This document shows positions 13,040 through 36,494 of a stretch of DNA of 46,537 nucleotides, piece by piece. A model generated the notes under the pieces. The model made no database searches. It was not told the DNA's origin and worked only from the letters and a program-made list of their open reading frames with translations. Source of the stretch: Pseudomonadota bacterium (GTDB lineage Bacteria; Desulfobacterota; DSM-4660; Desulfatiglandales; B25-G16); NCBI GenBank assembly GCA_030603345.1, contig JAUVXZ010000003.1, positions 1-46,537 of the forward strand. Reading direction: 5' to 3'. Each line of letters begins with the position of its first letter. Position 1 is the stretch's first letter. The translations under genes were made by a program, and so were the position numbers.

Positions 13040-13049
13040 TCTTTTGTCT

Positions 13050-14441: not shown

Positions 14442-14468
14442 ATTCTATTTCCTTAAGGTGGATTTTTG

Positions 14469-16082
14469 CTATCGCATTTTGGACCAGAGGGCTCTTAGGT
14501 CTTGTGGATTCCACCAGATATCTATCTTTAGGTCCTCACAGATGACCTTGGCTGCATTGTAACCCGGAGCGCCCGTGATGTTTCCAAAAGGGTGGCTCCC
14601 TGATCCGCAGAGATATAGTCCCTGTATAGGCGTGCGATAAGGCTTGAGCCCGGGAAAAGGGCGATTCTCAAGCATCTGATCCCGGCTGGCCATTCCAATG
14701 CAATGGTCTCCTTCGCGCATGTTGATGAGCTTCCGCTCCACATCCAGGGGGGTAAATATATATGTGGCGATGATATTGTCTTTGTCTAGATTGGGTGCAT
14801 ACTCTCGCCATCTTTCCAGACAAACTTCCATGTATTCGGCGCCGATCTTGTCCCATGCCTCGGGTCCGCCATCTTTCAGGTGATAGGGAGCGAACTGCCA
14901 GAGGAAGGCCGTGTGTTTTCCTTGAGGTGCCTGTGCAGGGTCGTATAGGGTTGGTGCTGCGCATTGCATGCCTGGTTTTTTAGGAGGAATCCCTTCATCA
15001 ATCTCTCTCATGTGGGCATAAAAGTCATCCAGGCACTCCAGTCCCACATTGAAATTGAAACCAGAATCGATTTCCGGGTTAAAGGCAGCGGAGGTGTAAT
15101 GAAGAGGCTCGTTGAGTGCAAGATGAACACCAAAGAGTGGGAATTTGCCGAACTTGAAACCCTTTACCTTTTCAATGAAGCTGGATTCGAGCTTGTCTTC
15201 TCCCACCAACTCCAAGAAGGTCTGGGGGATATCGACCGAACTGACAACCAGCTTCCTGGCCTGAAGCTTTCTGCCATCATCCAGCACCACCCCAACAGCG
15301 CGTCCCCCCTCGACCATGATCTCCCGAACATGGGCTGCCTCCCGGACTCTTCCTTGGTTGGACTCAATGACCTTGGAGATGGCATGGGCCAGATAATGCG
15401 ACCCACCCCTGCACATACTTCCTCTGAGTCCTCCGGTGATGGAAGAGGCCACGTTGTAACCTAGCCCTGGCTCATCTGCAAGGAACACCCTTGTGGTGAC
15501 CAGAAAGATAAGCATTGCCCTCATCTGCTCGGTCTCGAAAAACTCCTTTGCCAACTCCATAGGGGATTGCTGGCTGAGGGCCAGATATTCACGGCCTGAT
15601 TCAGTCTTTTCCAGCAAGGCGCGTTTTTCCTCAAAGGGAAGGGGTGGTGAATAGGTTTCTGGTACGATAATCTCTTCGTTCATTCTCTGAAAGCGTTTTA
15701 AAAGATCGCGATAGGTGTCTGCATCCTTTTTTGAAAAGTAAGAGATATTCTTGAGCGTTTTTTCCTCTTCGGTGTGAAAGATAAGGCATTTGCCGTCGCT
15801 GAAGGGGGTCACGGCCTGTACGGGCGGCATAATCATGCGGGCACCATAACGGTCCAGCTCCAAATCCTTGTACCACGGAAGATCCGGTACCCATCTAAGA
15901 AAGTAGGAATGCAGGTTGTGATAAAAACCAGGGATAGTAACCTCCTCGGTGCAAAGCCCTCCCCCGGGCTCCATCCTTCGCTCCAAAACCAGAGTCTCTA
16001 AACCCGCCTTTGTCAGGTATGCAGCTAGAATCTGACCGTTATGACCCCCTCCAATGATGATAGCGTCAAAGATCTCTTTCAT
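14469..16082 (-). CDS. Phytoene dehydrogenase-like FAD-dependent oxidoreductase (PYROXD2-like)
   Basis: IIIGGGHNG, LERR...GGG, YRTPIQGLYLCGSGSHP...GAPGYNAA. Confidence 0.88.
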   Translation of the reverse strand: MKEIFDAIIIGGGHNGQILAAYLTKAGLETLVLERRMEPGGGLCTEEVTIPGFYHNLHSYFLRWVPDLPWYKDLELDRYGARMIMPPVQAVTPFSDGKCLIFHTEEEKTLKNISYFSKKDADTYRDLLKRFQRMNEEIIVPETYSPPLPFEEKRALLEKTESGREYLALSQQSPMELAKEFFETEQMRAMLIFLVTTRVFLADEPGLGYNVASSITGGLRGSMCRGGSHYLAHAISKVIESNQGRVREAAHVREIMVEGGRAVGVVLDDGRKLQARKLVVSSVDIPQTFLELVGEDKLESSFIEKVKGFKFGKFPLFGVHLALNEPLHYTSAAFNPEIDSGFNFNVGLECLDDFYAHMREIDEGIPPKKPGMQCAAPTLYDPAQAPQGKHTAFLWQFAPYHLKDGGPEAWDKIGAEYMEVCLERWREYAPNLDKDNIIATYIFTPLDVERKLINMREGDHCIGMASRDQMLENRPFPGLKPYRTPIQGLYLCGSGSHPFGNITGAPGYNAAKVICEDLKIDIWWNPQDLRALWSKMR

Positions 16083-16097
16083 GGTTTCTTTCTCACA

Positions 16098-16829
16098 CTA
16101 TTTTCGTAAGTCCTGTCTTTTCGCCCGCTTTCCGCCTAAGTATGCTTCGCGGACCTTTTCATTGGAACTGAGCTCTTCACCACTGCCTGCAAGAACGATC
16201 TTTCCAATCTCCAGCACATATCCACGATCTGCGACTTGAAAGGCCTTTCTGGCGTTCTGCTCTACCAGGAGTATGGCGACATCGGCAGTCTTGAGTTCCA
16301 TGATTTTTGCGAAGACCTCGTTTACCAATTTAGGTGCAAGGCCCAGGGAAGGCTCATCCATCATGAAGAGCTTGGGCCGGGCCATCAGGGCCCTGCCGAG
16401 AGCCAGCATCTGCTGTTCTCCGCCACTCAGGGTCTTACCCAACTGCCCCTGCCTTTCCTGAAGGATGGGAAACATCTGAAAAACTGTATCGAGGGAGTCG
16501 TTGAGATCCTCACCAGGCCGGCTGAATCCTCCCATAAGGAGGTTTTCCAAGACAGTCATCTGGCTTAAAACCTCCCTCCCCTCTTGGATCAAACAAATTC
16601 CCCGCCGGACAATTTTGTGAGGAGGGATCTTCACGATATTCTCCCCTTCAAAGATTACCTCTCCTTTGGATGGGGTAAGAATACCCGAAATGACACTGAG
16701 CAGGGTGGTCTTTCCTGCCCCGTTAGCCCCGATCAGCGTAACGATCTCCCCCTTCCTCACCTCCAGGTCAATGCCCTTTAGAACCTGTATGGTTCCGTAA
16801 CGTGCTTCAATCCCTTTGACCTCAAACAT
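16098..16829 (-). CDS. livF: ABC ATP-binding protein, LivF-like
   Basis: GANGAGKTT, LSGGEQQML, DEPSLGLAP; start placed at MFEV. Confidence 0.92.
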   Translation of the reverse strand: MFEVKGIEARYGTIQVLKGIDLEVRKGEIVTLIGANGAGKTTLLSVISGILTPSKGEVIFEGENIVKIPPHKIVRRGICLIQEGREVLSQMTVLENLLMGGFSRPGEDLNDSLDTVFQMFPILQERQGQLGKTLSGGEQQMLALGRALMARPKLFMMDEPSLGLAPKLVNEVFAKIMELKTADVAILLVEQNARKAFQVADRGYVLEIGKIVLAGSGEELSSNEKVREAYLGGKRAKRQDLRK

Positions 16830-16836
16830 AAATTCC

Positions 16837-17586
16837 CTACTCTTCTTCCCTTCCAAGATAGGCCTCAATGACAGCCTCGCTTGCCTGGATTTCATCTGGT
16901 GTGCCCTGGGCGATCAATTCTCCAAAATTGAGTACAGATATATAATCACAGATCCCCATGACCACGTTCATATCGTGCTCGATCAAAAAAACAGTCTTTC
17001 CCGTATTCCGGATCTCACTGATTCTGTCCAGAAGGTCCTCGGTTTCCGCCTCATTCATGCCTGCAGCGGGTTCATCCAGGAGCAAAAGCCGTGGCTCAAG
17101 AGCAAGGGCCCTGGCAATCTCCAGGCGCCTTTGTTCACCATAAGCAAGGCTCAAACTCTGCTCCTTGCGTTTTTCCCAAAGGCCCATCCTTCTCAGCAGG
17201 TCATCGGCCTCTTCTTCAAATCCTCTTTCTTTCGCACTAAAGAGTTGGACCAGACTAGTGACACCTGATCGTGCCCTGATGTTCTGGGCCACCAGTATGT
17301 TTTCCTTCACGGTCATGGTGCCAAAGAGCCTGATATTTTGGAAGGTTCGGGCTATTCCCAATTTTGCAATCTTGTGAGCCTTAAGCCCGGTTAACTCATT
17401 TCCCAGGAATTGGATGGAGCCCACGGTTGCAGGTAAAAACCCGGTAATAAGGTTAAACAGAGTCGTTTTCCCGGCTCCATTGGGACCAATGAGGCCATAA
17501 ATCTGTTTTTCCTTCACATGAAACGTGATCTCCTCAAGAGCTTTTAGGCCTCCGAAGTGTTTTGATATGTGTGCGATCTCAAGCAT
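16837..17586 (-). CDS. livG: ABC ATP-binding protein, LivG-like
   Basis: GPNGAGKTT, ARTFQNIRLF, LDEPAAG, EHDM. Confidence 0.93.
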   Translation of the reverse strand: MLEIAHISKHFGGLKALEEITFHVKEKQIYGLIGPNGAGKTTLFNLITGFLPATVGSIQFLGNELTGLKAHKIAKLGIARTFQNIRLFGTMTVKENILVAQNIRARSGVTSLVQLFSAKERGFEEEADDLLRRMGLWEKRKEQSLSLAYGEQRRLEIARALALEPRLLLLDEPAAGMNEAETEDLLDRISEIRNTGKTVFLIEHDMNVVMGICDYISVLNFGELIAQGTPDEIQASEAVIEAYLGREEE

Positions 17587-17587
17587 C

Positions 17588-18451
17588 TCAAGAACTCGCC
17601 TTTCGGAAAATCCCGCCGACCCATTCTCCGGCGTTCCTTACCATGTGCCGGCTGATGATCCCAGAGGGACGAAAAATCATCATGAGAACCAATACACTAC
17701 CATACACGCTTAGACGCCAACCCCCCATGAAACGCAATACCTCAGGGAGGATGCTAAAGATAACGCCTCCCAGCAAAGCTCCCCAGAAGGTATACATCCC
17801 CCCCAGAATGACGCAAAGGATGGCCATGGCAGAAACGAGGATATGGAAATTACCCGATTCGATATAGAACATATAATGGGCATAGAGACCTCCGGCAATC
17901 CCCGCAGTAAATGACCCGAGCCAGAAAACGCCTAGTTTCAGCAAGGTCACATTCAGTCCGATTGAACTGGCCACCTCCGCATCATCCCGAAGAGCATCCA
18001 AAGAGCGCCCTAACCGCGATCGGCTCAAGAGCCAGAAGAGTATAATTAGTACCAGAACCCAGCCGTATATCATGGGCATGGTTGCTCCAACGGGCCCCCG
18101 GAAGCCATAGGCCCCTCCTGTAGGCTCAAAAATCATAAAAAAGGTCCGCACCACCTCGCCGAAGCCAAACGTCCCCATGACAAAGTAAAGGCCTTCAAGC
18201 CTCAGGAGGGGAATCCCTATCAGGAGCCCTATAAAGCTGGCGGCGAGGGCTCCGATGAGCAGGGCGGGAAAGATGGGCATGCCCAATTTTACGCTAAGAT
18301 ACGCCGATGTGTATGCCCCAATGGCCATAAACCCAGCATTTCCAAGAGAAACCTGATCAGCCATGACTATGGCATATACGCTTAAGGCCATCAGGATATT
18401 GACTCCCATGAGGGCAATCACGCCTTGCGTGTAGACGCTCATCCGTTCCAA
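17588..18451 (-). CDS. livM: ABC permease, LivM-like
   Basis: QVSLGNAGFMAIGAY, LRLEGLY, RPSGI. Confidence 0.9.
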   Translation of the reverse strand: MERMSVYTQGVIALMGVNILMALSVYAIVMADQVSLGNAGFMAIGAYTSAYLSVKLGMPIFPALLIGALAASFIGLLIGIPLLRLEGLYFVMGTFGFGEVVRTFFMIFEPTGGAYGFRGPVGATMPMIYGWVLVLIILFWLLSRSRLGRSLDALRDDAEVASSIGLNVTLLKLGVFWLGSFTAGIAGGLYAHYMFYIESGNFHILVSAMAILCVILGGMYTFWGALLGGVIFSILPEVLRFMGGWRLSVYGSVLVLMMIFRPSGIISRHMVRNAGEWVGGIFRKASS

Positions 18452-18460
18452 CTCCTATGA

Positions 18461-19333
18461 TTACTGTTCTTTGGTTCCAAAAAGTCCCTCGGGTTTAAAG
18501 ACAATAAAGGCCAAGAATAGGCCAAAGAGGATAATATCTCGGTAACCTGCGGTAAAATAGGCATCGTTCATGATCTCGATGATCCCGATCATGAGCCCAC
18601 CGATCATAGCCCCTCTCAGATTCCCCACGCCTCCAATCACCATGGCTACCATACCGATCAGGCCTTGACGGATCCCTATAAAGGGGGTGATCTGCAAGTA
18701 GACCAGGGCTGTCAGGACCCCTGCTACACCGGCCAGTGCACCAGAGACAAAAAAGGTGAAGACAATGACCCAATTGATATTGACTCCCAAAAGACTGGCT
18801 GTCTGCGGTTTTTCCGATGTGGCCCGCATGGCCCGACCGAAGCTGGTCCTTTTTACAAACTGGTCTATTCCCACCATCAATAGGATGGAGGTGGCCAGGA
18901 TAATGATGTCGATGGATGAGACCAGAACGGGACCTAACTGGAATTGGGCTATCTCTGTGGTCTGCGGATATCGAGAAGGCTCCGAGCCCCAGATTTGTGT
19001 GGCTACGTTTTGCAAAACAATCCCGAAGGCAATGGTGCTGAGCAAGGGCATCAGGAAATGAGCCTTCCTGAGGGGACGAAAACAAAGACGCTCGATGATG
19101 ATTGTGACGATGCCTGCTCCTACCATAGCCAGAATCAGGGCGAGGTAAAGAGGCATCCCCAACATGGCGAAGCTCAGCCCAAGAAAGGCCCCGAACATGA
19201 AAACGTCGCCATGGGCAATGTTCAACATCTTAAGGAGCCCCAGCACCAGGGTAAACCCTAAGGCAAGGAGAGAATAGGTGCTGCCCAGCGTCAGCCCGTT
19301 GACGAGTTGTTGCAGAAACATCAGTGGCTCCAA
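18461..19333 (-). CDS. livH: ABC permease, LivH-like (start may be the ATG at 19321)
   Basis: QQLVNGLTLGSTYSLLALG, NIAHGD, KPEGLFG. Confidence 0.9.
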   Translation of the reverse strand: MEPLMFLQQLVNGLTLGSTYSLLALGFTLVLGLLKMLNIAHGDVFMFGAFLGLSFAMLGMPLYLALILAMVGAGIVTIIIERLCFRPLRKAHFLMPLLSTIAFGIVLQNVATQIWGSEPSRYPQTTEIAQFQLGPVLVSSIDIIILATSILLMVGIDQFVKRTSFGRAMRATSEKPQTASLLGVNINWVIVFTFFVSGALAGVAGVLTALVYLQITPFIGIRQGLIGMVAMVIGGVGNLRGAMIGGLMIGIIEIMNDAYFTAGYRDIILFGLFLAFIVFKPEGLFGTKEQ

Positions 19334-19346
19334 AAAGGGATATAGC

Positions 19347-19370
19347 TGGGGCGGCCCAAAGGACCGCCCC
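19347..19370 (-). terminator. Hairpin between binding-protein and permease genes
   Basis: GGGGCGG-loop-CCGCCCC; typical position for differential mRNA stabilisation or attenuation in ABC operons. Confidence 0.5.
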
Positions 19371-19389
19371 CAAGGATATCAGCGATGGA

Positions 19390-20598
19390 TTATTGACCCG
19401 CGATGGGTACCCAATGACCCCCCTTAATCTCAAACACATGCACGTCCTTGATGCCATCGCCTACGCAGTTGAAGCCCCTGCTGGCCACGCCTCTGAAGTC
19501 CCTGAGGGTAGCCATATAGTACATGAGCTTATCCTGATCCATTTGGAGATCTCCGGGCTTGTTGCTGACACACATGTGTTTGATGGCCTCCACGATCATG
19601 AAGACGGCATCATAGCCGTTCACCGGATAATAATCCGGTGTCGCCGTGTATTGGCTTGTATACATGGTCTTGGCCCGCTTCTTGTACGCCTTAACGAACT
19701 CCTTGCTCTCGGGGGTGTCCAGGTCGATGTTCCAGATGGTTCCAGAAAAGGTCCCTACCACGGCCTTGCCTCCAAGCTCGGGGACCTCCCCTTCCATAAT
19801 GGGGGCTGTGCTCATAAAGGGCTGAGTCATCCCTTGTCTTCGGGCCTCTGTTATAATATTGAGTGCATCAGGGCCCAGGGCGCCCATCCCGACCCCATCC
19901 GGGTTCATGGCCTTCAGTTTGGTAATCTGGGCCCTGAACTGGGTGTCATTGGTCTGAAAGGTCACGGGCTTATCGCCTGTCATGACTTCGATTCCCTGTG
20001 CCTTGAATGCAGGTGGAAGGACCTTGGTGCCCACGGACTTGGAGACGGCGTCCTTGATATCCGTGATGATGGCCACCTTCTTGATGTTGTATCTCTTTTT
20101 CCACTCCCTGATCACAGCCACTGCAACCTTGTCTTCTGTCAGGGTATTTCGAAATGCATAGGGCCGGTTTGCAGCGGCCAGCCCCGGTTTGGAGGAGGCC
20201 ACAGCGATCTGGATGATCTTGAGCCTGTTGCCCAAGGGGAAAGTGGTCTCCCCCACAGAACTGTAATGGGGACCCACGATGGCAAGGACCTTGTGGTCTC
20301 CAGCCAACTTGCGCACGGCGTTCACTGCCTCTTGAGGATTGCTTGCCGTATCCTCAATATATAACTTCAGAGGAACGCCGTTTACCCCTCCCCTGGCGTT
20401 GATCACATCCACGGCCGCCTGGGCGCCGATCGCTTCACGCTTGCCCACATTGGCGCCATGACCCGTGATGGGGCAAACCGCACCGATCTTGATCTCTTTG
20501 CCGGCAATAGGCCCGGCAAAAGAGGATGTATGGAATGCCAGTGTACACAATAGGACGGAAAAAAATACGATTATTGCGGTAGTGGTTTTTCTTCCCAT
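19390..20598 (-). CDS. ABC transporter substrate-binding protein (LivJ/K-like), paralogue of 833..2008
   Basis: Signal peptide, INARGGVNG, FRNTLT, NKPGDLQ shared with the first binding protein. Confidence 0.92.
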   Translation of the reverse strand: MGRKTTTAIIVFFSVLLCTLAFHTSSFAGPIAGKEIKIGAVCPITGHGANVGKREAIGAQAAVDVINARGGVNGVPLKLYIEDTASNPQEAVNAVRKLAGDHKVLAIVGPHYSSVGETTFPLGNRLKIIQIAVASSKPGLAAANRPYAFRNTLTEDKVAVAVIREWKKRYNIKKVAIITDIKDAVSKSVGTKVLPPAFKAQGIEVMTGDKPVTFQTNDTQFRAQITKLKAMNPDGVGMGALGPDALNIITEARRQGMTQPFMSTAPIMEGEVPELGGKAVVGTFSGTIWNIDLDTPESKEFVKAYKKRAKTMYTSQYTATPDYYPVNGYDAVFMIVEAIKHMCVSNKPGDLQMDQDKLMYYMATLRDFRGVASRGFNCVGDGIKDVHVFEIKGGHWVPIAGQ

Positions 20599-23936: not shown

Positions 23937-25517
23937 CTATTCCCACCATGTTTTCAGTCCATGGTCCTCGGCGATGATTTCTGCTGCAATAACACCGGGG
24001 GCACCGATGATGCCTCCTCCAGGATGGCAACAGGCCCCGCAAAGGTAGAGATTGTTGATCGGGGTTCTGAACTCGGCCAATTCTGGCAAAGGCCGAAAAT
24101 ACTCCAGTTGACCCAAAATTAATCGACCCATAAATACGCCCCCTGCCTTCATATTATACAGTTTTCTCTCGATATCCAGAGGCGAAAGGGCTGTTTTCTT
24201 CAAGATGTTCCCATCGGTTAGGTTAGGTGCATACTGACGCCATTTGTCGATACAGAGATCCATGTACTCTCCCTTTATCTCATCCCATTTTTCCGGGCCA
24301 CCGTCCTTTAGATCATACGGAGCAGGTTGCCATATCAGGGCCGTATGCTTGCCTCTAGGGGCTTGGCTGGGATCGAATAGAGTGGGCACGGAACAGAACA
24401 TCCCGAGATGTTCCGGAAGCTTCCCTGCCCTTATCTCAGACCAAAGGAGTCGATAGTCTTCTGGTGTTTCCAGGCCAATGTTGAGCTTAAAGGCGTTATC
24501 TATCTCGGGGTTAAATCTTGCACAGGTGTGAGCAGGAGGTTCATTCAATGCCAGGTGCACACCGAAAATTGAAAATTCATCCAACTTGAAATTCTCTATC
24601 TTTTCAACAAAACTCTCCTCCAGGTTTTCTTTTCCTACCAATTCCAGAAAGGTCTGTTTGAGATCTACAGCACTTGCTACCAATTTATTCGCCCGGTACT
24701 TCTCTCCCCCGAGGATCTCAACGCCTTTGGCCTCGCCATTTTCAACCACGATCTTACTGACATGAGAGAACCCTATAGCCATCCCTCCATTGGCAAAAAA
24801 CGACCGCCATAGGGCATGGGCAAGCACATGCGAGCCTCCTAAACAGATCTGGGAGTGCTCAACTTGGCTGACCATCAGAGGGATAACTGTACCCAGACCA
24901 TGATAATCAGGCACTATCCCTCTTGGAATCGGAAGTTGATGAAGAATGAGGGCCTTTACATGCTCGTTTTCAAAGTATTCATCCAACACATCGTTTGGGC
25001 TCAGTCTTCCCATTCTAACGAAATCAAGGCCCTCCGGGCTGTTCTCTAAAATGGCCAGCTGGTTCGAGGGAGGGTGGGGTCGAGTAAATAAGGCCGGCAT
25101 GACAGCCGCCTCCATGAAACTCGCGTAATTCTCGGTCATCTCCCGGTAGGCCTCAGCATCGTGCTTGGATACACGAGCAATGGATGCACATGTTTTGTCC
25201 AGGTCCGTATGCATGGTGATGGCATGACCGCTTTTCAGGGCGATTCCTGCTTGGACGGGAGGACGATAATACCTGGCGTTGAATTCTTCCAGGTCCAGAT
25301 CAACAAAAGGAGGCATTACGTTGATTGTATCGTGAAAGTAGGAGTGCAGATTATGGAGGAATCCCGGAATGGTGATCTCCTCCGTGCTCAAACCACCTCC
25401 GACCTCCAGCCTCCTTTCAACAATGAGCGTTTTTAGACCAGCTTTTACCAGGTAGTTACCCAATACGAGTCCATTGTGTCCTCCACCGATAATTATGGCA
25501 TCATAGTTTTGCATCAT
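23937..25517 (-). CDS. Phytoene dehydrogenase-like FAD oxidoreductase, paralogue of 14469..16082
   Basis: IIIGGGHNG, TEEITIPGFLHNLHSYF, FRTPINNLYLCGACCHPGGG. Confidence 0.88.
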   Translation of the reverse strand: MMQNYDAIIIGGGHNGLVLGNYLVKAGLKTLIVERRLEVGGGLSTEEITIPGFLHNLHSYFHDTINVMPPFVDLDLEEFNARYYRPPVQAGIALKSGHAITMHTDLDKTCASIARVSKHDAEAYREMTENYASFMEAAVMPALFTRPHPPSNQLAILENSPEGLDFVRMGRLSPNDVLDEYFENEHVKALILHQLPIPRGIVPDYHGLGTVIPLMVSQVEHSQICLGGSHVLAHALWRSFFANGGMAIGFSHVSKIVVENGEAKGVEILGGEKYRANKLVASAVDLKQTFLELVGKENLEESFVEKIENFKLDEFSIFGVHLALNEPPAHTCARFNPEIDNAFKLNIGLETPEDYRLLWSEIRAGKLPEHLGMFCSVPTLFDPSQAPRGKHTALIWQPAPYDLKDGGPEKWDEIKGEYMDLCIDKWRQYAPNLTDGNILKKTALSPLDIERKLYNMKAGGVFMGRLILGQLEYFRPLPELAEFRTPINNLYLCGACCHPGGGIIGAPGVIAAEIIAEDHGLKTWWE

Positions 25518-25732
25518 CTTCCTCCTTTGGCACAGCGATCCGTAAGATCTTTCAGTTCTTTGTAGGTGATCTTCCGGTTCTCATCATAGATCGCCACATC
25601 CTGGGCCCTCCCATGGCTAGCCCGGAAGTTAACCATGAGCCTTGCCATGTTCAATTTTTCCGGGATGTCCAATTTATAAAATCCCTGGGTATCCATTCTC
25701 AGATAGGTTTGATCTATTTCAATGGTTTCCAT
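25514..25732 (-). pseudogene. Truncated 5' copy of the CoA ligase (72 aa), coupled to the downstream oxidoreductase
   Basis: METIEIDQTYLRMDTQGFYKLDIPEKLN...DLTDR matches the ligase; its stop overlaps the next ATG (ATGA). Confidence 0.9.
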
Positions 25733-25960: not shown

Positions 25961-25981
25961 AGGTTTATTTTATAGTTTTTA

Positions 25982-26013
25982 ATACCCCGTCCGCTTGCGG
26001 CGGGGAGGTTCAT
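25982..26013 (+). repeat. REP / IS200-IS605-end-like palindromic element
   Basis: ATACCCCG-T-CCGC-TT-GCGG-CGGGG-AGGTTCA, resembling the hairpin plus TCA tail of Y1-transposon ends. Confidence 0.6.
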
Positions 26014-26123
26014 CGAGCTATGCTATCAGTCAAAGGTAAGGAAAGAGAGTGTCCGAGACTTGACGCCACCTTCCTGGTTATTTATCATGGGTTTTGGTGG
26101 GTGTGACGTTATTTTGGAATAGT

Positions 26124-26152
26124 TTGACTTGTCCTTAGGGGATTGGTAAAAT
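26124..26152 (+). promoter_or_regulatory. Sigma70 promoter of the racemase-like gene
   Basis: TTGACT, 17 bp, TAAAAT with extended -10 TG; Shine-Dalgarno AGGAAGGAG before ATG 26213. Confidence 0.65.
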
Positions 26153-26212
26153 TTTTTATTATGGAAGTTCAACCAAAAATGGGATTTCTCTACATAGGAA
26201 GGAGATATAAAG

Positions 26213-26914
26213 ATGAAATTAGCAGTTATTCTGCCTGGTGATTACGATGAAGAACTTTGTGAACAAAAAGAAAAGTATCTCAATCACTTTGCTTCTGTTG
26301 GAACACAAATAAAAGCATTTCCATCAGGAGGGACAAAATCAATTCGCAGCCTTATTGATTTTGTGCTCATTGCGCCTGGTGCGGTAGAGCAGGCAATAAA
26401 GGCAGAAAAGGCAGGTTTTGACGGTGTTGCTCTTCAAGGGACGTGAGACTTTGGTATTGAGGCTGCTCGTGCAGCAGTCAATATTCCCGTGGTGGGTTTT
26501 GGTTCAGCCATGTATCATATGGCATATCAGTTAACAGATAGATTTGGGGTGGTGGTTGCAAATGATAAAACAATGCCGGAACTTGTGCGGAAGATAAAGT
26601 CAATGGGCTGTTATGATCGTATGGTGTCCATGATTCCACTTAATTTGCCTATAGAGGAGGCATATAAAGATGAGATAGAGAATAGATTTGTCGAGATAGG
26701 GCGATGTCAAATTGATGAACAGGGTGCTAATTTAATAGCTGCAGGACATGCAACCATGTTAGCTACTATAGGGTTTGGATCGAGGGAGAGAATTGAAAAG
26801 AAACTTGGCGTCCCTGTGCTTGAACCACCTGGAATTGGCATAAAGACACTTGAGGCATTGGTAGGGCTAAAACTAAGTCATAGCAAAAAGGCATATCCAT
26901 CGCCAACCGAATAG
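26213..26914 (+). CDS. Asp/Glu/hydantoin racemase-family protein with in-frame UGA at codon 78 (candidate selenoprotein; alternatively a nonsense pseudogene)
   Basis: ORFs 26213..26446 and 26489..26914 are in the same frame. Read-through gives AEKAGFDGVALQGT-U-DFGIEAARAAVNIPVVG...LSHSKKAYP, 233 aa. Confidence 0.75.
26453..26485 (+). promoter_or_regulatory. SECIS-like stem-loop immediately 3' of the UGA
   Basis: GGTATTGA-G-GCTGC-TCGT-GCAGC-AG-TCAATATT; apical loop 20 nt after the UGA. Confidence 0.5.
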
Positions 26915-26917
26915 CCC

Positions 26918-26965
26918 AGGGTGAGCGTTACATTTCATGGCCTTATGATGGATAAGGATATGGAG
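26918..26965 (+). pseudogene. N-terminal relic of a MoaD/ThiS paralogue
   Basis: RVSVTFHGLMMDKDME versus KVTVKFHGLIMDKDVE at the start of the intact gene at 36475. Confidence 0.7.
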
Positions 26966-27082
26966 TCGCTCCCACGAAAATGAACCCGAAGGGGGTGATA
27001 GCAATTGGAGACTGGATAAAGACGTACTGAAAATTCCAGAAATTTTGCCTAAACAAAGAAGTAGAAAGTGACGGGGGGATTA

Positions 27083-27205
27083 GCGAAGTTGACATTTGTG
27101 TTATTTGGCTTGTTAGGATTTGCCGCTCTGTGATTATTCGCACCGAATATTTTCTTGGATTTACTGGGAGCCGCAGTGTTAGCCGCTGTAACGCTCGTGA
27201 GTTGA
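27083..27205 (+). pseudogene. Relic of a membrane protein C-terminus (possibly a TRAP fused permease)
   Basis: AKLTFVLFGLLGFAAL*LFAPNIFLDLLGAAVLAAVTLVS*: two hydrophobic segments interrupted by stops. Confidence 0.35.
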
Positions 27206-27263
27206 AGGAAGAGACTAATTATGATCATAAATTGGGCATTCAAAAACACGAAAGGAGTGTGAA

Positions 27264-27611
27264 ATGCGAAGAATTGTCTTGGTTGATGAAGTAGATTACG
27301 AGAAAGTGGAATGGGGACTGACAAAGAATCTCGTAGGGCCTCAGACCGTGGGATCAAAGAGGATTAAGGTAAACATAACCGAATACCTCCCTAGCTATGT
27401 CCACAAACCCCACTCCCATCCCAATCAAGAAGAAGTTATCTATATCCTTTCGGGCAAAGGTATTACGGAAGCAGAGGGGATGAGGAGCGAAATCGGCCCA
27501 GGTTCCGTGGTCTTTATTCCCGCAGGGGTAAAGCATGCCACTTTAAACCTGAGTGATTCTAAATCTCTAAAGGCAATAGTAATCAAGGCACCCCCAGCAG
27601 AAGATTCCTGA
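27264..27611 (+). CDS. Cupin domain protein
   Basis: HSHPNQEEVIYILSGKG and VFIPAGVKH motifs; AAGGAG Shine-Dalgarno. Confidence 0.9.
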   Translation: MRRIVLVDEVDYEKVEWGLTKNLVGPQTVGSKRIKVNITEYLPSYVHKPHSHPNQEEVIYILSGKGITEAEGMRSEIGPGSVVFIPAGVKHATLNLSDSKSLKAIVIKAPPAEDS

Positions 27612-27772: not shown

Positions 27773-28225
27773 TCATCCTCTTCGAACCACCTCGACGGTT
27801 CCTTTAGTTCCGTCAACGGTAAGGTAGTCCCCGTCCCTTATGGTCTTGAAGGGATCTTTGTCTAGACTGTCAACTACTGGAACCTCGATGTCATAAAAGA
27901 CACGGGCGAAGACCGGTCCGGCAAGTAATACGCCATCCGTTTTGCTGTTTACTATGGCCTTAGGCCCTACTCCTTGCATTATTGCTTCAAGCAGGGAAAC
28001 TCCACCGGCCAGAGAGCCTATGCTGAAGGGGAATACCAGTATCTTTCCCTCAAGACTCTTCCCAAATAGCTCATGCTTGGTATCTTCTATCTTGGAGAGC
28101 TTTCCTGAGAGAATTCCTTGCATATATGCTCCGAAGAAATTTATCGGTTTTGTGACGAGCGCCTCCCCTTTAGCAATTCCACGGTTGAGTCCACGGCCCT
28201 TGAGAACAACTTTACGCATCTCCAT
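27773..28225 (-). CDS. Aconitase X swivel/small subunit (DUF126)
   Basis: G-A-GEALV, HELFGKSLEGKILVFP...GS, VDGTKGTV. Confidence 0.85.
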   Translation of the reverse strand: MEMRKVVLKGRGLNRGIAKGEALVTKPINFFGAYMQGILSGKLSKIEDTKHELFGKSLEGKILVFPFSIGSLAGGVSLLEAIMQGVGPKAIVNSKTDGVLLAGPVFARVFYDIEVPVVDSLDKDPFKTIRDGDYLTVDGTKGTVEVVRRG

Positions 28226-28231
28226 CCCTCC

Positions 28232-29440
28232 TTAAGCCCTTCCACTTATGGCTGCTGCTATACATTCACGCTGACTTCCATACACAGCCCGTCTATAGTA
28301 ACAGATCTTGCCTGAATCGCTCATAAGTCGCATATCTGAGTAAGGATTGACGGCGTGGAGGCAATATATACACCCGGAAAAGAGTCTACCTCCAGCCTCC
28401 TTGATGATCTGGGCTATACCTTGTTGTTTAGCCAGATCGATAGCACCATTATGGGTGCAGACCCAAAGTTGAACCCCATCCTTCACCTTCTTTCCCTTCA
28501 ATAGCCTAGCAATTGACGCCACCTCTTCGAAGGTATAGTGAGGGCAACCAACACCAACAATATCTATCTCGCCTCCAGCTTCAGCACTAGACATCTCTTC
28601 CTTGGTTTTCCTCAGCACAGTATCGTCGATTTCAACTATTTCAACTGGTTTCTGACCTCCAAAGGCCCTTTCTAATGTAGGGGCTTCAGGCGTCAAACCT
28701 GGAATATGGTACATTGAAATAGCGCCTGTACTGGCAGCCGCGGCCCCCATATTCTTGAGGCTGGAAGTTGAAGCCTTCTCCTGAATACCGTCTATCACCG
28801 GGATCTTTGTGCCACATACCTTGCCAAGATAGTAGCCGATCGCAGCGAAGTCGTCCGACTTCAACCCTTTCACCTTTACATTACAGAGAATTTCCCCTTT
28901 CCTGTTTTTGTCAATGTGGAGTCCGCTGTAAACGGTTTTTCCAGTGATAGCACTCACGAGATCCATAAGGATAGGCTCCCTATTGGCCCTAGCGCCTATC
29001 ACGGAGTTTATGTAGATCACTGCCGAGGATTCTTCCCACGAGAGATGCTGACCAAACCTGGGAATGTTTCCATACACATAGGGGATACAAGTCCAATTAG
29101 GGATTACTCCCAGCGTCCTGTAGTAGCCCTCCAACGGACTTGAGCCTTGGAATGCTTCAGGAATGGATGGTGACTCTGGGTTTCTTGGGTCTGCAGGGTA
29201 AGGATTTACGGATGTGGGAACCTGTACATCCGCACCCAGATCGACGAACTTCTTCACAATACCTATATAGCCTGTACAATGGCGAAGCAGATCAACATTG
29301 CCAAGATGGCTTCCTTCTGTGGCTATTAGGCGTTCCGCATCCAATCCTTCCCCCATCTGGACTATCGCCTTCATAGCGAGCTCTACAGCTGGACCCATTT
29401 TGCCAGCGAGCATCTCTTCCTCTGTTTTTGTAAGCTGCAT
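28232..29440 (-). CDS. Aconitase X catalytic/large subunit (DUF521)
   Basis: LTKTEEEMLAG, TCIPY, WEESSAVIYINSVIGARANRE, GLTPEA, GCPH, DSGK. Confidence 0.88.
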   Translation of the reverse strand: MQLTKTEEEMLAGKMGPAVELAMKAIVQMGEGLDAERLIATEGSHLGNVDLLRHCTGYIGIVKKFVDLGADVQVPTSVNPYPADPRNPESPSIPEAFQGSSPLEGYYRTLGVIPNWTCIPYVYGNIPRFGQHLSWEESSAVIYINSVIGARANREPILMDLVSAITGKTVYSGLHIDKNRKGEILCNVKVKGLKSDDFAAIGYYLGKVCGTKIPVIDGIQEKASTSSLKNMGAAAASTGAISMYHIPGLTPEAPTLERAFGGQKPVEIVEIDDTVLRKTKEEMSSAEAGGEIDIVGVGCPHYTFEEVASIARLLKGKKVKDGVQLWVCTHNGAIDLAKQQGIAQIIKEAGGRLFSGCIYCLHAVNPYSDMRLMSDSGKICYYRRAVYGSQRECIAAAISGRA

Positions 29441-31753: not shown

Positions 31754-34012
31754 GTGAAGAAGAGCAATGAGCCAGATAGAAGAGTACATACAGTGACATG
31801 GTCTGCAGGTCCTGGGTGTCACGGGGGATGTGGGGTGTTTATTGATGTCAAGGATGGGAAGTTGGTAAAAATGGAGGGAGACCCGGATCATCCTTACAAC
31901 AATGGTAGGCTTTGCCCAAGAGCTCTCACTATAAAGGACTATATCTACCATCCGGACCGGTTACAAAACCCCTTAAAGAGAACCGGCAAGCGGGGAGAGA
32001 ATAAATGGGAGAAGATCTCCTGGGATGAGGCTTACGACCTCATAGAGGGGAGAATGGAGGACATACGGGAAAAGTACGGGGCTGAGTCTATGCTCTTCAT
32101 CCAGGGAACAGGAAGAAACGTGGGGGGCTGGCTCCTGCTGCTGGGATATTCCTATGGAAGCCCGAATTGGCTCCAGGGAGGACTTACCGGCAATTCCTGC
32201 TTCCATCCCAGGCTTGTCTGTATGCGAATGACCCAGGGGGACTATACGGTGCCCGATTGTTCCCAATTTTCCCAAGATCGGTACGAAGATCCAGAGTTCG
32301 TCCTTCCCGAATGTTGCATGATCTGGGGACAGAACCCTGCTAAAACATGCAACGACGGATTCAATGCCAATTGGATCATAGACATGATGAAGAGGGGAAC
32401 AAAGACGGTGGTCGTCGATCCAGTTTATACCTGGATAGCCTCTAAGGCGACCATCTGGTTACAGCTTCGGCCCGGCACCGATGGGGCCCTTGCCCTGGGG
32501 CTTCTCAATGTCATTATCAACGAGGGCATCTATGACAAGGAGTTCGTCGAAAAATGGACCTATGGTTTCGACAAACTTGCGGAACGGGTGCAGGACTACC
32601 CCCCGGAGAAGGTTTCCCAGATCACCTGGGTCCCAAAGGAAAAGATCATCGAGGCGGCTCGACTCTTCGCAAAGAGTAAGCCGGCATCCATCCAGTGGGG
32701 AGTCCCGGTGGACCTGGCACCAGAGGGCGCCCTCGTGGCCAATTCCATCATCCACCTTTGGACTATAACCGGAAACATCGATATTCCAGGGGGCATGGCT
32801 ATTGCCAGAATGGCCTATGATGTTCCCCCTTACCCTATGAGCCAAGAGGCGATTGCAGAGTATTACGGCGACGTGATGACTCCCGAGCAAATGGCCAAGC
32901 GGATCGGTATAGATGAGTATCCCGTAGCCAAGGAATTTCACTGGAGAGCCCAGGCAGACATGGTCCTCGAGGCCCTGCTTACAGACAAGCCGTATCCCTT
33001 AAAGGGAGCCTGGATCGCTGGCAATAACATGCTTGCTACCTCGGCGAATCCGAGGAAATATTATGAGGCCCTGAATCGTCTCGATTTCATTGTGGTTGTC
33101 GATCTATTTATGAACCCGACAGCAGTGGCCTTGGCCGATGTGGTGCTTCCGGCGGCAACCATGGCCGAACGTGATGGCATCAGGGCCTGGTGGACACCTC
33201 TGAATGCCATGGAGAGATCCGTGGAGGTAGCAGGATGCAAACCTGACGAGGAGATCTGCTTTGAGCTGGCCCGGCGATTGAACCCCAATCTGAAATGGAA
33301 GAGTTTAGAGGACCTTTTTAACGATTTCTTAAGACCGTCAGGCATGAACTATGAACAACTGAAAGAGAAGGGCTGGGTATTTCCACCCAAAGGGCACCCA
33401 ACCCAGCCCTATCGGAGGCACGAGAAGGGGCTTTTGCGAAAGGACGGCAAGCCAGGCTTCAATACCCCCACCGGCAAGGTTGAACTCTATTCCACTCATT
33501 TCGAAAGGTGGGGCTATGATCCTCTGCCCTATTACGAAGAACCCCATATGAGCCCCTATAGTACTCCAGAGCTGGCTAAAGAATATCCCCTAATCCTCAC
33601 TACAGGGAGGCGAAGCGTCCTCTATTTTCATTCGGAGCATAGAAATATCAAACCCTTGAGGGAGTTGGAACCCGATCCGGTTCTCGAGATCCATCCTGAC
33701 ACGGCCTCTTCCCTGGGGATCGAGGACGGAGATTGGGTCTGGGTGGAGAATGCCCATGGCCGCTGCAAGCGAAAGGCCAAATATTTTCATGGGATCCATC
33801 CAAAAGTGGTCCAGTCCTCCCATGGCTGGTGGCTTCCAGAGAAGCGGGCCGAAGACCTCTTTGGTCTCTGGGAGGTAAACATCAATCAGCTGATCCCCGA
33901 TGGAACTCAGGCCAAGTGCGGGTTTGGAGGGGGGCAGTACAAATCACTCCTCTGCAAGGTCTACCGGGCCGATGAAGGAATCGAAGGGATTTATAAGAGG
34001 GAGACTCTCTGA
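31754..34012 (+). CDS. Cytoplasmic Mo/W-bisPGD oxidoreductase (DMSO reductase family; acetylene hydratase / catechol dehydroxylase-like branch)
   Basis: WSAGPGCHGGC...LCPR, HPDRL, ISWDEA, LRPGTDGALA, DVVLP, TPTGKVEL, FHSEHR; no Tat signal. Confidence 0.88.
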   Translation: MKKSNEPDRRVHTVTWSAGPGCHGGCGVFIDVKDGKLVKMEGDPDHPYNNGRLCPRALTIKDYIYHPDRLQNPLKRTGKRGENKWEKISWDEAYDLIEGRMEDIREKYGAESMLFIQGTGRNVGGWLLLLGYSYGSPNWLQGGLTGNSCFHPRLVCMRMTQGDYTVPDCSQFSQDRYEDPEFVLPECCMIWGQNPAKTCNDGFNANWIIDMMKRGTKTVVVDPVYTWIASKATIWLQLRPGTDGALALGLLNVIINEGIYDKEFVEKWTYGFDKLAERVQDYPPEKVSQITWVPKEKIIEAARLFAKSKPASIQWGVPVDLAPEGALVANSIIHLWTITGNIDIPGGMAIARMAYDVPPYPMSQEAIAEYYGDVMTPEQMAKRIGIDEYPVAKEFHWRAQADMVLEALLTDKPYPLKGAWIAGNNMLATSANPRKYYEALNRLDFIVVVDLFMNPTAVALADVVLPAATMAERDGIRAWWTPLNAMERSVEVAGCKPDEEICFELARRLNPNLKWKSLEDLFNDFLRPSGMNYEQLKEKGWVFPPKGHPTQPYRRHEKGLLRKDGKPGFNTPTGKVELYSTHFERWGYDPLPYYEEPHMSPYSTPELAKEYPLILTTGRRSVLYFHSEHRNIKPLRELEPDPVLEIHPDTASSLGIEDGDWVWVENAHGRCKRKAKYFHGIHPKVVQSSHGWWLPEKRAEDLFGLWEVNINQLIPDGTQAKCGFGGGQYKSLLCKVYRADEGIEGIYKRETL

Positions 34013-34377
34013 TGGAATATGGACTTTATATCGATTGGGAATGGTGCAGTGGATGCCATTCTTGCGAGCTTGCCTGTAAGCAGGAGCATAGCCTCAAAAC
34101 CGACGAATGGGGGATTCGTGTGGTGGAACGCCTCCACCGTGCGAAGGATGGCATCGTCAGCGAATATATACCAATCCCTACCGATCTCTGCAACTTCTGC
34201 ATGACCCGGGTGATGGAGGGAAAGCAGCCCGCCTGTGTCCATCATTGTATGACCAAATGCATGGCGTTCGGTCCCATAGAGGAGATGGCCAAACTGGCGG
34301 CAAAAAAGAAGAAGACGGTGGTTTGGGGGAGGACCTATCCCTCCAGATCGGAACTGATCTCCGGAACCTCTGCATGA
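34012..34377 (+). CDS. Small 4Fe-4S subunit of the Mo-bisPGD enzyme
   Basis: YGLYIDWEWCSGCHSCELAC...CNFC...PACVHHCMTKC; overlaps the upstream stop. Confidence 0.88.
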   Translation: MEYGLYIDWEWCSGCHSCELACKQEHSLKTDEWGIRVVERLHRAKDGIVSEYIPIPTDLCNFCMTRVMEGKQPACVHHCMTKCMAFGPIEEMAKLAAKKKKTVVWGRTYPSRSELISGTSA

Positions 34378-34510
34378 CCCGGGTGATGGATGGGAAGCAG
34401 CCTGCCTGTGTCCATCATTGTATGACCAAATGCATGGCGTTCGGTCCCATAGAGGAGATGGCCAAACTGGCGGCAAAAAAGAAAAAGTCGGTGGTGTGGG
34501 GAAAGATCCA
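34180..34510 (+). repeat. Diverged tandem repeat (period 173 nt) of the ferredoxin 3' half
   Basis: ATGACCCGGGTGATGGA...TGGGG at 34201 and 34374; the second copy is out of frame and opens ORF 34374..34559. Confidence 0.93.
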
Positions 34511-34643
34511 CTGGCAGATAGATCCCTCTTTTAGGGAACCGCCCTTCCACAAGAAATAGCGCCCCACTTTTCCCAGAAGTATGTCCACAAAAGAACACAA
34601 TCATAGACCTGCGAGCAGTGGTTAAAAGGGACAGTATACAAAG

Positions 34644-36494
34644 ATGCCGTATTTTTTTTCACTACTCAGGGTTGATCTGACCCAGCGAAAGTTCCGAGAG
34701 GAAAGGATCGATGAATCCATGATTCTCAAATTTCTAGGTGGGAGGGGCCTCGGAGCCAAGATCCTTTTTGATGAGCTAAAGCCCACAACTGACCCATTGG
34801 GGGCGGAAAACAAACTCCTCTTCCTAACCGGCCCCCTGATCGGTACTGGTGCTCCATGGTGCGTCAAGTACACCGTGGTGACCAGATCCCCGCTTTCCGG
34901 GACAATCCTGATGAGTCTGGCCGGTGGTTTTTTTGGGCCACGACTTCGTTGTACGGGATACGATGGCCTTATAATAGAGGGCAAATCGGAAGAGCCGATA
35001 TATCTTTGGATCCATAACGGAAGCGCTGAATTCAAAAAGGCTTCCCATCTATGGGGCATGAGCACGGAGGAGTGCCAGGAGGAAATCCGCGAGGAGTTGA
35101 GGGAGCCCAGGGTTCAGATCGCCTGCATTGGCCCGGCTGGGGAGAGGGCTGTTCGACTGGCCTGTATCATCAGTGGCAGACGCGCGGCAGGCCGTGGAGG
35201 GGCAGGGGCTGTGATGGGCTCCAAGAACCTCAAAGCTATTGCAGTAAACGGCACCAGAAAGGTTCCCATCCTGGAGCCCCAGGGCTTTAAAGAACTCCAG
35301 ATGGCTATTCGGAAAGAGGTTCCCAAGACTGATCGACTGAAGGTTTTTGGGAAATATGGCACGCCCAAGAACCTTTTACTGGTTAATGAAAGGGGCATAT
35401 TCCCGACCCGGAATTTTCAGGGGGGTGTGTTCGAGGGGATCAGGGAGGTCAACCACATAGAGCAACAGCGCAGGGTAATCAGAGAGGTAACCTGCCATGC
35501 CTGTCCGGTGGCCTGCGGCAACCTCACGAGAGCTGCGGAGGGGCCATATGAGGGAATTACAACCGAAGGGCCGGAGTACGAGACCTTCTGGGCCTTTGGA
35601 GCCCAATGCGGAAATAGTTCTATAGATGCTATTATTGCCGCCGACCGGTTGTGCGACCAATTGGGGTTAGACACTATCTCCACCGGAAACATTATTGGTT
35701 TTGCTATGGAGTGCATGGAGAGGGGGCTCCTGAAGCAGGAAGAACTGGAGGACCTGGATCTAAGGTTTGGGAACCACTCGGCCATGGTTGAAATGATTCG
35801 TCGCATCGGCTATCGAGAGGGGATAGGGGACATGCTGGCAGAGGGTGTGCGAAGAGCAGCAGACCGGATTGGAAAAGGTTCCCATAATCTTGTGATGCAT
35901 GTAAAGGGACTGGAACTGGCTGGTTATGATCCGAGGGGTGCCAAGGGAATGGGGATCGAATACGCTACTTCGCCAAGAGGAGGATGCCATGAGAGGGGGC
36001 TTGTCTCCAGAGAGACCTTCGGTGCCCTTCCGTTTATTGACCCACTGTCCAAAGAAGGGAAGGGGGCTGTGGTCAAACATGTGCAGGACGAGACAGCCGT
36101 CCTCGACTCCCTTGGGGTGTGTGTCTTTCCTCCCCATAACGATGGAATGGATATGACGGATATCGCCGGACTCCTTTCCTTTGTGTTGGGAAAGACTATT
36201 ACTCCAGAGGAGCTGATGGAGGCCGGGGATCGGATATGGAACCTGGAGAGATTGTTTAACATACGGGAGGGTTTCACAAGGGATGATGATACCTTGCCAG
36301 CAAGGCTTCTTAAGGAGCCTATGCCCGAAGGGCCAGCTAAAGGGCACGTTGTGGAGCTTGATCAGCTTCTGGACGATTACTATTTGACCCGCCAATGGGA
36401 CAACAATGGGATTCCCACACCTGAGGTGTTAGATAAGCTAGGACTCGCTCAGGAGGGAAGGAGTGTCCACCTCCATGGCAAAGGTGACTGTTAA
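34644..36494 (+). CDS. aor: Tungsten aldehyde:ferredoxin oxidoreductase family protein
   Basis: LGGRGL, RSPLSG, GRGGAGAVMGSKNLKAI, CHACPVACG, GPEYET, GLDTIS, YDPRG, RGGCH. Confidence 0.92.
   Translation: MPYFFSLLRVDLTQRKFREERIDESMILKFLGGRGLGAKILFDELKPTTDPLGAENKLLFLTGPLIGTGAPWCVKYTVVTRSPLSGTILMSLAGGFFGPRLRCTGYDGLIIEGKSEEPIYLWIHNGSAEFKKASHLWGMSTEECQEEIREELREPRVQIACIGPAGERAVRLACIISGRRAAGRGGAGAVMGSKNLKAIAVNGTRKVPILEPQGFKELQMAIRKEVPKTDRLKVFGKYGTPKNLLLVNERGIFPTRNFQGGVFEGIREVNHIEQQRRVIREVTCHACPVACGNLTRAAEGPYEGITTEGPEYETFWAFGAQCGNSSIDAIIAADRLCDQLGLDTISTGNIIGFAMECMERGLLKQEELEDLDLRFGNHSAMVEMIRRIGYREGIGDMLAEGVRRAADRIGKGSHNLVMHVKGLELAGYDPRGAKGMGIEYATSPRGGCHERGLVSRETFGALPFIDPLSKEGKGAVVKHVQDETAVLDSLGVCVFPPHNDGMDMTDIAGLLSFVLGKTITPEELMEAGDRIWNLERLFNIREGFTRDDDTLPARLLKEPMPEGPAKGHVVELDQLLDDYYLTRQWDNNGIPTPEVLDKLGLAQEGRSVHLHGKGDC

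Follow-up and report, generated by a model that had tools for sequence, protein, structure and literature searches.

Is the single TGA codon inside a racemase-like gene of a sulfate-reducer lineage a stop, a lesion or a site of selenocysteine (Sec) insertion? The gene lies at 26213–26914 of the 46,537-nucleotide stretch analyzed here in full (hereafter the window; contig JAUVXZ010000003.1 of assembly GCA_030603345.1) and encodes a protein of the Asp/Glu/hydantoin racemase family (Pfam PF01177). From comparative sequence evidence, we put at about 85% the probability that this is a genuine selenoprotein gene in which UGA78 is decoded as Sec. Coordinates are window positions, on the plus strand unless stated otherwise. 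The features that define the gene are the following.

26213–26914, plus strand: candidate selenoprotein coding sequence (PF01177 fold), 233 codons when read through, from ATG 26213 to the stop TAG at 26912–26914
26444–26446, plus strand: in-frame TGA, codon 78, probably read as selenocysteine, as judged from the TGA/Cys pattern among homologous loci and from substitution rates against locus L021
26200–26204, plus strand: Shine-Dalgarno sequence AGGAG, 8 nt ahead of the ATG, read from the sequence
26124–26152, plus strand: sigma-70-like promoter match, TTGACT-17-TAAAAT, TG-extended, with 10 of 12 consensus matches

A single reading frame interrupted by one TGA

Direct translation of 26213–26914 yields one frame with a single internal stop, the TGA of codon 78. 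This frame holds both open reading frames (ORFs) of the region, 26213–26446 (77 amino acids, aa) and 26489–26914 (141 aa), and the initial annotation, which had joined the two fragments across one TGA into a clean 233-aa protein, was correct in its coordinates and motifs. The read-through translation (P0001; 233 residues, with C written for U) contains G76-T77-U78-D79-F80-G81 and G178-H179-A180-T181-M182. Both the Shine-Dalgarno sequence and the conserved C terminus that had been noted are present, the latter (LSHSKKAYP) agreeing with the family consensus LSHSKxAYP. The "strong promoter" once assigned to the gene reduces to a consensus match: the region holds 3 promoter-like sites against 4.5 ± 2.4 in shuffled sequence, a count not above chance.

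Contigs from metatranscriptome libraries, three studies in all, fall on the gene. One of 226 nt (depth 3.1) spans 26412–26637 with the TGA unchanged, and others cover 26672–27055, 26697–26981 and 26790–26995. RNA libraries may contain DNA, such cover does not bear on translation, and uncovered parts are uninformative.

Cysteine and TGA alternate at codon 78

We collected homologous DNA from the genomes of 61 relatives, from all 209 genomes of the order (the class set is identical), from 401 genomes sampled across the phylum, from one metagenome scan (7 loci) and from one species-genome scan (8 loci). The resulting codon table comprises 18 of 19 tblastn hits; L042, which covers residues 1–75 only, was left out. 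Eight of the 18 tabulated loci have TGA at codon 78. They include the window's own locus (L019) and L037, L038, L039, L040 and L020/L044, at 91–97% aa identity, with the proviso that L020 and L044 have identical translations and may be one genome present twice. They also include L021, which is 63% identical, reads HGT-TGA-DFS and belongs to another genus of the family. Another eight tabulated loci, at 45–51% identity, have TGC or TGT at this codon in the motif HGICDFG, and ten more loci from the phylum sample all have Cys78, which brings the Cys clade to 18 of 18 loci at 41–51% identity. Cys78 further occurs in P0002 (60% identity), P0006, P0014, P0015, P0017, P0019 and P0048–P0050. The last two tabulated loci are L043 (36% identity), which has the canonical Cys two codons earlier than codon 78, and L041 (57% identity, on a metagenome contig), in which the TGA (L041:243–245) falls at column 76 in the motif LH-TGA-MFDMG, with Phe78 and Phe133. 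Apparent in-frame stops in L052 (one TGA) and L053 (one TAA) proved to be the terminal stops of those genes.

Typically, Sec is recognized by just such an alternation of Cys and TGA at a conserved position. Tabulating codon 78 across genomes, as the initial annotation had proposed, revealed this alternation among homologues of the subfamily. That annotation had also named a UGA unique to this genome as a finding that would speak against Sec; the TGA recurs in relatives, including one of another genus.

A tree of 41 rows unites, with 100/98 support, the U78 forms (the window's clade and L021) and the Cys78 forms P0002 and P0048. The same clade contains L041 (TGA76/Phe78, checked on the DNA), P0005 (Trp76/Phe78) and P0003 (Leu76/Leu78). 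All sister clades of this Sec-holding clade have G-x-C at columns 76–78, so Cys78 is the ancestral state and Sec is derived from it.

Ratios of nonsynonymous to synonymous substitution (dN/dS) between L019 and L021 are about 0.14 upstream of the TGA (0.239/1.757) and about 0.23 downstream of it (0.259/1.13), and neither gene has another stop or a frameshift. Low dN/dS on both sides at saturated dS, with no other stops, rules out a pseudogene adrift. Synonymous silence in the 11 codons after the TGA within the 91–97% clade was considered as a further signal and set aside as uninformative, the dS of that clade being merely 0.02–0.17.

In the protein database, the orthologue is represented by fragments alone. 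P0004 belongs to a 90% cluster of 54 members; the 15 listed among 40 of these are C-terminal fragments of 131–145 aa, which, where named, are called "allantoin racemase" or "hypothetical protein". At the protein level, the 77-aa N-terminal gene calls P0061/P0209 (81% identity) and P0100 (62%) stop right before codon 78. The public U78-clade gene calls that we inspected, one NCBI entry among them, are truncated at the UGA; annotation pipelines thus miss the protein. In other branches, the gene calls of P0064 (157 aa) and P0016 (134 aa) begin just past the codon-78 region and have Cys at column 179; P0016 sits on a 7,366-base contig, which makes a contig end unlikely as the cause of its truncation. 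By their sequences, P0064 and P0016 may be further independent Sec forms.

The host encodes Sec machinery and uses a standard code

The Deltaproteobacteria/Desulfobacterales lineage to which the host belongs is rich in selenoproteins, and new Sec/Cys families are regularly found in it. We searched the host assembly (3.33 Mb in 330 contigs, 88.6% complete) for the Sec machinery that the initial annotation had suggested looking for. It contains tRNA-Sec (69.9 bits against a gathering score of 47; anticodon TCA), SelA (606 bits) and SelD (394 bits; L015, G000:C59:4551–5477), as well as SelB in part, namely its C-terminal half, which carries winged-helix domains 2 and 3. All four of selA, selB, selC and selD that a bacterial selenoprotein requires are accordingly represented, selB as a half gene. 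SelD has one in-frame TGA of its own and is an internal example of Sec use in this host. G002 and G025, the other two genomes that bear the TGA, have SelA and tRNA-Sec as well, and so do two Cys-form genomes. We rejected an alternative genetic code, since 7 of the 37 long frames in the window end in TGA, an ordinary stop there, and the code is therefore standard.

A hairpin downstream of the UGA is a plausible SECIS element

Bacterial Sec insertion sequences (SECIS) are hairpins, and one candidate follows codon 78.

26453–26485, plus strand: candidate bacterial SECIS hairpin; lower stem 26453/4–26460 with 26478–26484/5, upper stem and loop 26462–26477

RNAfold returns the 13-bp interrupted hairpin that had been described 7 nt after the UGA, with 8 bp, interruptions of 1 nt and 2 nt, 5 bp and the loop UCGU (26467–26470), which begins 20–21 nt past the UGA. 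Its 33-nt core has an energy of -15.0 kcal/mol; folded over 50 nt the value is -17 kcal/mol, a stability also reached by 6 of 200 shuffles (z -2.17). The bacterial SECIS model, as excerpted from a 2026 review, has a loop of 3–9 nt, an upper stem of 4–16 bp, a G in the first two loop positions, a spacing of 16–37 nt and a minimum free energy <= -7.5 (PMC13188914). The window hairpin lies within these limits in spacing, loop size and energy (-15.0 or -10.2, according to register). The initial annotation had cautioned that the loop G is misplaced. This caveat vanishes in an alternative register, with upper stem CUGCU/AGCAG and loop CGUGC, which L021 and L041 can also form, but it remains in the most stable register, where the G of UCGU is third.

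In the alternative register, 91.7% of cells are paired and two pairs are compensatory (U-A to C-G), both in L021; U78 loci form 11–12 of the 12 pairs, compared with 7–10 in the 18 Cys loci. The covariation that had been proposed as a check rests on those two compensatory pairs, and among 500 column shuffles the pair count is attained in 36 and the covariation score in 22. The hairpin is plausible as a SECIS element and compatible with the model, rather than demonstrated as one.

Evidence against Sec and rival readings of the TGA

Several observations weigh against the selenoprotein assignment. Some members of the closest clade depart from Cys or Sec at position 78: L041 has Phe78 beside TGA76, and P0003 (Leu76/Leu78) and P0005 (Trp76/Phe78), both seen as protein only, have neither Cys nor a visible stop at columns 76 and 78 and run counter to a simple rule. 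The gene neighborhood is not conserved between the Sec lineages. Host SelB was recovered as its C-terminal half only, from a gene that begins at the contig edge and is cut by it. As to the hairpin, the register that places G early in the loop is 4.8 kcal/mol less stable in the window than the UCGU register; the 33-nt segment of L021 is no more stable than its shuffles (z -0.38); some Cys-form loci fold equally well (L055, z -4.18; L052, z -2.28); the codons for Ala-Ala-Arg-Ala-Ala are self-complementary by nature; covariation rests on just three independent lineages; and an Rfam scan of 26100–27300 at E <= 10 found no family.

Three other accounts of the TGA were weighed. A nonsense mutation, for example from TGC or TGT to TGA, might have killed a Cys-type gene whose frame merely looks intact. 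The TGA is indeed one step from the TGC/TGT of the homologues, at least one gene fragment lies nearby (a 72-aa AMP-binding N terminus at 25514–25732, E 0.015) and public annotation handles the gene as fragments; we nonetheless hold a dead gene to be highly improbable, given that two genera have kept the same TGA at dS > 1 with dN/dS of 0.14–0.23 on both sides, that no further stop or frameshift occurs in 233 codons and that gene calls of more lineages end exactly at codon 77. In a second account, the UGA terminates translation and a 77-aa N-terminal piece is made with or without a 141-aa C-terminal piece from GTG 26489; ORF lists and public gene calls give exactly these two pieces. Residues 79–92, between the TGA and GTG 26489 (the next possible start), would then go untranslated, yet they are the best-conserved stretch of the protein (DFGIEAARAAVNIP, 12 of 14 identical between the window and L021 at 63% overall) and in the structural model form the catalytic loop and helix 82–88. 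Their conservation argues against two separately translated pieces, and no Shine-Dalgarno sequence is seen ahead of GTG 26489, so that we regard a split protein as the least probable of the three.

The UGA could also be read as a standard amino acid, as Trp or Cys by a near-cognate tRNA or under a reassigned code. P0005 has Trp at the very column where its sister L041 has TGA, and the hairpin statistics are weak. Against this, TGA ends frames normally in the window, the genome holds dedicated Sec machinery and the site shows the Cys/TGA alternation expected of Sec; insertion of a standard amino acid is therefore very unlikely. Decoding of UGA78 as Sec is the reading we carry forward below.

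A PF01177 subfamily with a displaced cysteine

P0001 scores 68.2 bits against PF01177 (cut-off 31) and its model has the two-domain, pseudo-symmetric alpha/beta fold expected of the superfamily, which together place it there; an NCBIfam search gave no meaningful match (best E 0.067). Its nearest solved relatives by sequence are the allantoin racemases 3QVK/3QVJ (E 3e-14) and 5LFD and the hydantoin racemase 2EQ5. The AlphaFold2 model, built from a 112-sequence alignment, has a mean predicted local distance difference test score (pLDDT) of 97.1, and Foldseek matches it best to 3qvk, 3qvj and 5lfd (template modeling score, TM, 0.88; root-mean-square deviation 2.4 Å; 26% identity). The columns of the two canonical catalytic cysteines fall at these codons.

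26438–26440, plus strand: codon for Gly76, the canonical Cys1 column of hydantoin/allantoin racemases, by ungapped alignment
26747–26749, plus strand: codon (CAT) for His179, the canonical Cys2 column, by HMMER and profile alignment

In excerpts on the Klebsiella allantoin racemase, the canonical catalytic cysteines are Cys79 and Cys184 (PMC12661438). The initial annotation had placed the UGA two residues beyond an absent Cys1 and had found His in the Cys2 column, and ungapped profile alignment agrees. Sec78 aligns with the Gly of C-F-G-D-P-G both in HMMER alignments to the solved structures and in ungapped profile-profile alignment. The two-thiol racemase signature (C-x-x-D-P-G with G-C-x-x-M) is thus absent, its cysteine columns being Gly76 and His179.

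In a set of 182 single-domain family members, Cys occupies column 76 in 116 and column 78 in 23. Cys78 is invariant in the subfamily, in 11 of 11 rows of the subfamily alignment and 18 of 18 loci. Judged by sequence, the window gene belongs to a distinct subfamily, G-x-C-D-F-G, with its presumed reactive Cys at +2 and Gly at canonical Cys1. In the model, the catalytic loop bearing residue 78 follows strand 71–74, and residues 79–92 make up this loop and helix 82–88.

Between sister lineages, recoding seems to have shifted from one position to another of a single loop (U78/G76 versus U76/F78). P0009–P0012 group with the L041 sister lineage, as does P0005 with its Trp at the canonical Cys1 column. 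Nine family members of about 470–510 aa (P0053, P0055, P0057–P0060, P0065, P0070 and P0078) match the query over two separate stretches and appear from this to be tandem fusions of two PF01177 domains.

Candidate roles of Sec78 and its partners

UGA78 would be recoded to Sec by SelB and tRNA-Sec, probably at the hairpin 26453–26485, and Sec78 would then stand in for the invariant Cys of the subfamily in a catalytic loop whose canonical Cys1 is Gly. Canonical Cys2 has been lost in the clade, where the window's His is not conserved. We envisage a cofactor-independent enzyme whose substrate would be a carboxylic acid or its CoA thioester and whose single selenol would serve as base or nucleophile, making it an epimerase/isomerase or an arylmalonate decarboxylase (AMDase)-like decarboxylase rather than a two-thiol hydantoin racemase. 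In glutamate racemase structures, the +2 residue touches the substrate; together with the modeled position of Sec78 in the catalytic loop, this leads us to infer a catalytic role for the residue. The guess of a CoA-linked substrate derives from the genes beside the Cys-clade homologues, which hint at a carboxylic acid or acyl-CoA. In 13 such loci, AMP-binding CoA ligases adjoin the gene in 4, succinyl-CoA-ligase-like subunits in 3 and TRAP DctM in 2.

Two further cysteines of the window protein enter the question of what assists Sec78.

26609–26611, plus strand: codon (TGT) for Cys133, which co-occurs with Cys/Sec at 78 across the family; loop 131–136, before strand 137–142
26258–26260, plus strand: codon (TGT) for Cys16, a residue shared by all 8 rows of the Sec-holding clade

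The initial annotation took Sec for the only chalcogen nucleophile in the two motifs and proposed that Sec78 and His179 form a catalytic pair in place of the two-thiol dyad. His179 does occupy the canonical Cys2 column and is kept in the window's clade and in P0007 and P0008 (66–73% identity). Across the Sec-holding clade and its sisters, column 179 nonetheless ranges over H, N, T, A, S and Y (L021, itself a U78 form, and P0048 have Asn, P0002 has Thr, and the 18 Cys-clade loci all have Tyr), and such variation would not be seen in a residue on which the chemistry depends; Cys16 and Cys133, moreover, are conserved. We accordingly consider a Sec/His pair improbable. Cys133 and Cys16 bring up another possibility, a redox center in which Sec78 forms a selenenylsulfide with either of them, making the protein a thiol/selenol oxidoreductase on a racemase scaffold and not an isomerase. 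Among catalogued bacterial selenoproteins, redox proteins with a Cys close by are the majority (PMC9312934, Table 1). Cys133 goes with Cys or Sec at 78: 10 of 12 members with C78 and no C76 have it, against 0 of 11 where both columns are Cys, 1 of 105 where column 76 alone is Cys and 8 of 54 others, largely subfamily fragments, and the U76 branch has Phe at both 78 and 133. Cys16, in the first turn of helix 13–24 after strand 2–7 of the model, is conserved in the Sec-holding clade only. In the AlphaFold2 topology, however, residue 133 lies at the sheet edge opposite the loops that hold residues 78 and 179, which makes a direct contact with residue 78 unlikely; the association may reflect shared ancestry, the Phe/Phe state being that of one lineage. 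A redox role is in our view unlikely, if a little less so than the Sec/His pair.

Comparison with known enzymes and selenoproteins

Allantoin racemases (Klebsiella HpxA, 3QVJ/3QVK; Pseudomonas AllR, 5LFD) and the hydantoin racemase 2EQ5 share with the window protein their fold, D-x-G after the catalytic strand, IPVVG, an invariant Ser139 and LSHSKxAYP. Unlike them, the window protein lacks both catalytic cysteines and would carry its reactive residue, Sec, at +2. Single-thiol, "unbalanced" enzymes offer a precedent in AMDase (3DG9, 2VLB), whose sites are Gly74/Cys188, and in the E. coli L-DER (EcL-DER). Gly at the Cys1 column is common to AMDase and the window protein, but the surviving Cys of AMDase is at the second site, where the window protein has His (fold TM 0.63–0.70), so that only the first half of the AMDase signature, a site-1 Gly paired with a site-2 Cys, is present. 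The sites of EcL-DER are Thr83/Cys197 in the excerpted text of PMC12661438.

Maleate cis-trans isomerase (2XED, 4FQ5) belongs to the same superfamily, and its nucleophilic first-site Cys forms a covalent adduct, according to the title of 2XED. By analogy, a selenolate would suit such covalent chemistry. Maleate isomerase needs both canonical cysteines, whereas the window protein has neither and is distant in fold (TM 0.65, identity 12–13%). Overall, the window protein is probably closer to AMDase/EcL-DER or to the covalent chemistry of maleate isomerase than to a two-thiol racemase.

With catalogued bacterial selenoproteins such as SelD, peroxiredoxin-like and crotonase-family proteins, the window gene shares a UGA with Cys orthologues, a 3' hairpin and a sulfate-reducer host lineage. 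It differs from them in lacking a UxxC/CxxU redox motif and in having a non-redox isomerase fold.

A 2022 list of 87 prokaryotic selenoprotein families has no PF01177 entry (PMC9312934, Table 1), and the excerpted text of the 2026 review contains 0 occurrences of racemase, hydantoin, allantoin, maleate, PF01177, COG4126, COG3473, COG1794 or arylmalonate (PMC13188914). In our full-text literature search, selenocysteine was not connected by any paper with maleate isomerase, AMDase or a racemase of hydantoin, allantoin or aspartate. A study of marine Deltaproteobacteria lists candidate new selenoproteins in its Supplementary Table 6, which may bear on novelty; the main text, as far as it was available, lacks the word "racemase" (PMC8318568). 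Taken with the comparisons above, the gene most likely represents a previously uncatalogued selenoprotein family on a known fold, with a displaced, mobile catalytic chalcogen. The fuller proposal is more tentative, and we give it slightly less than an even chance: that this is the first selenoenzyme of the cofactor-independent racemase/isomerase superfamily, with a non-redox Sec serving as carbon-acid base or Michael nucleophile, with a displaced chalcogen hopping between two loop positions and with Sec and Cys interconverted more than once.

If this proves true, Sec in the catalytic loop of a racemase or isomerase would widen the known chemistry of selenium, catalogued prokaryotic selenoproteins being almost all redox proteins, and the natural Sec/Cys pair would allow the gain from selenium to be measured in proton-abstraction or addition-elimination catalysis. 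The work also defines a PF01177 subfamily, G-x-C-D-F-G, without canonical Cys1 and often without Cys2, whose members are now mislabeled "allantoin racemase".

Gene neighborhood

Synteny around the gene is kept within the genus only; L021 adjoins a PanE-like reductase and a solute-binding protein, and L041 a thiamine pyrophosphate enzyme. The decayed relics that the initial annotation had reported downstream were not confirmed: 26943–27294 holds two short ORFs without a Pfam match, and the next gene, at 27264–27611 (plus strand), encodes an intact cupin. This cupin gene is found in the window and L038 and is absent from L039 and L044, where the small subunit of aconitase X (AcnX) follows the selenoprotein gene by about 180 bp. 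In the window, an aconitase-X pair lies at 27773–29440 (minus strand), composed of the swivel domain PF01989 and the catalytic PF04412 (398 bits), and its synteny with the selenoprotein gene does not extend beyond the genus; an epimerase/dehydratase of the short-chain dehydrogenase/reductase (SDR) family and then an iron-dependent alcohol dehydrogenase (Fe-ADH) come after it.

Upstream, the 72-aa ORF at 25514–25732 (minus strand) abuts an FAD oxidoreductase gene and resembles an N-terminal fragment of an AMP-binding CoA ligase; intact ligases of the same family flank Cys-form homologues elsewhere. The window as a whole is a catabolic island, in which 10613–20598 and 31754–36494 hold an AMP-binding CoA ligase, a Liv-type ABC transporter and a UbiD-family decarboxylase. 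Also part of the island are a paralogue of the FAD oxidoreductase at 23937–25517, the second of its kind, a molybdopterin oxidoreductase and an aldehyde:ferredoxin oxidoreductase, and AcnX, SDR and Fe-ADH are counted among its genes.

A short GC-rich hairpin element occupies 25976–26013, upstream of the gene. In contigs from RNA libraries it recurs amid numerous unrelated surroundings, loose-ended on either side and at depths of up to 671, and the host genome itself has a partial second copy (C248:3719–3757) that is 83% identical.

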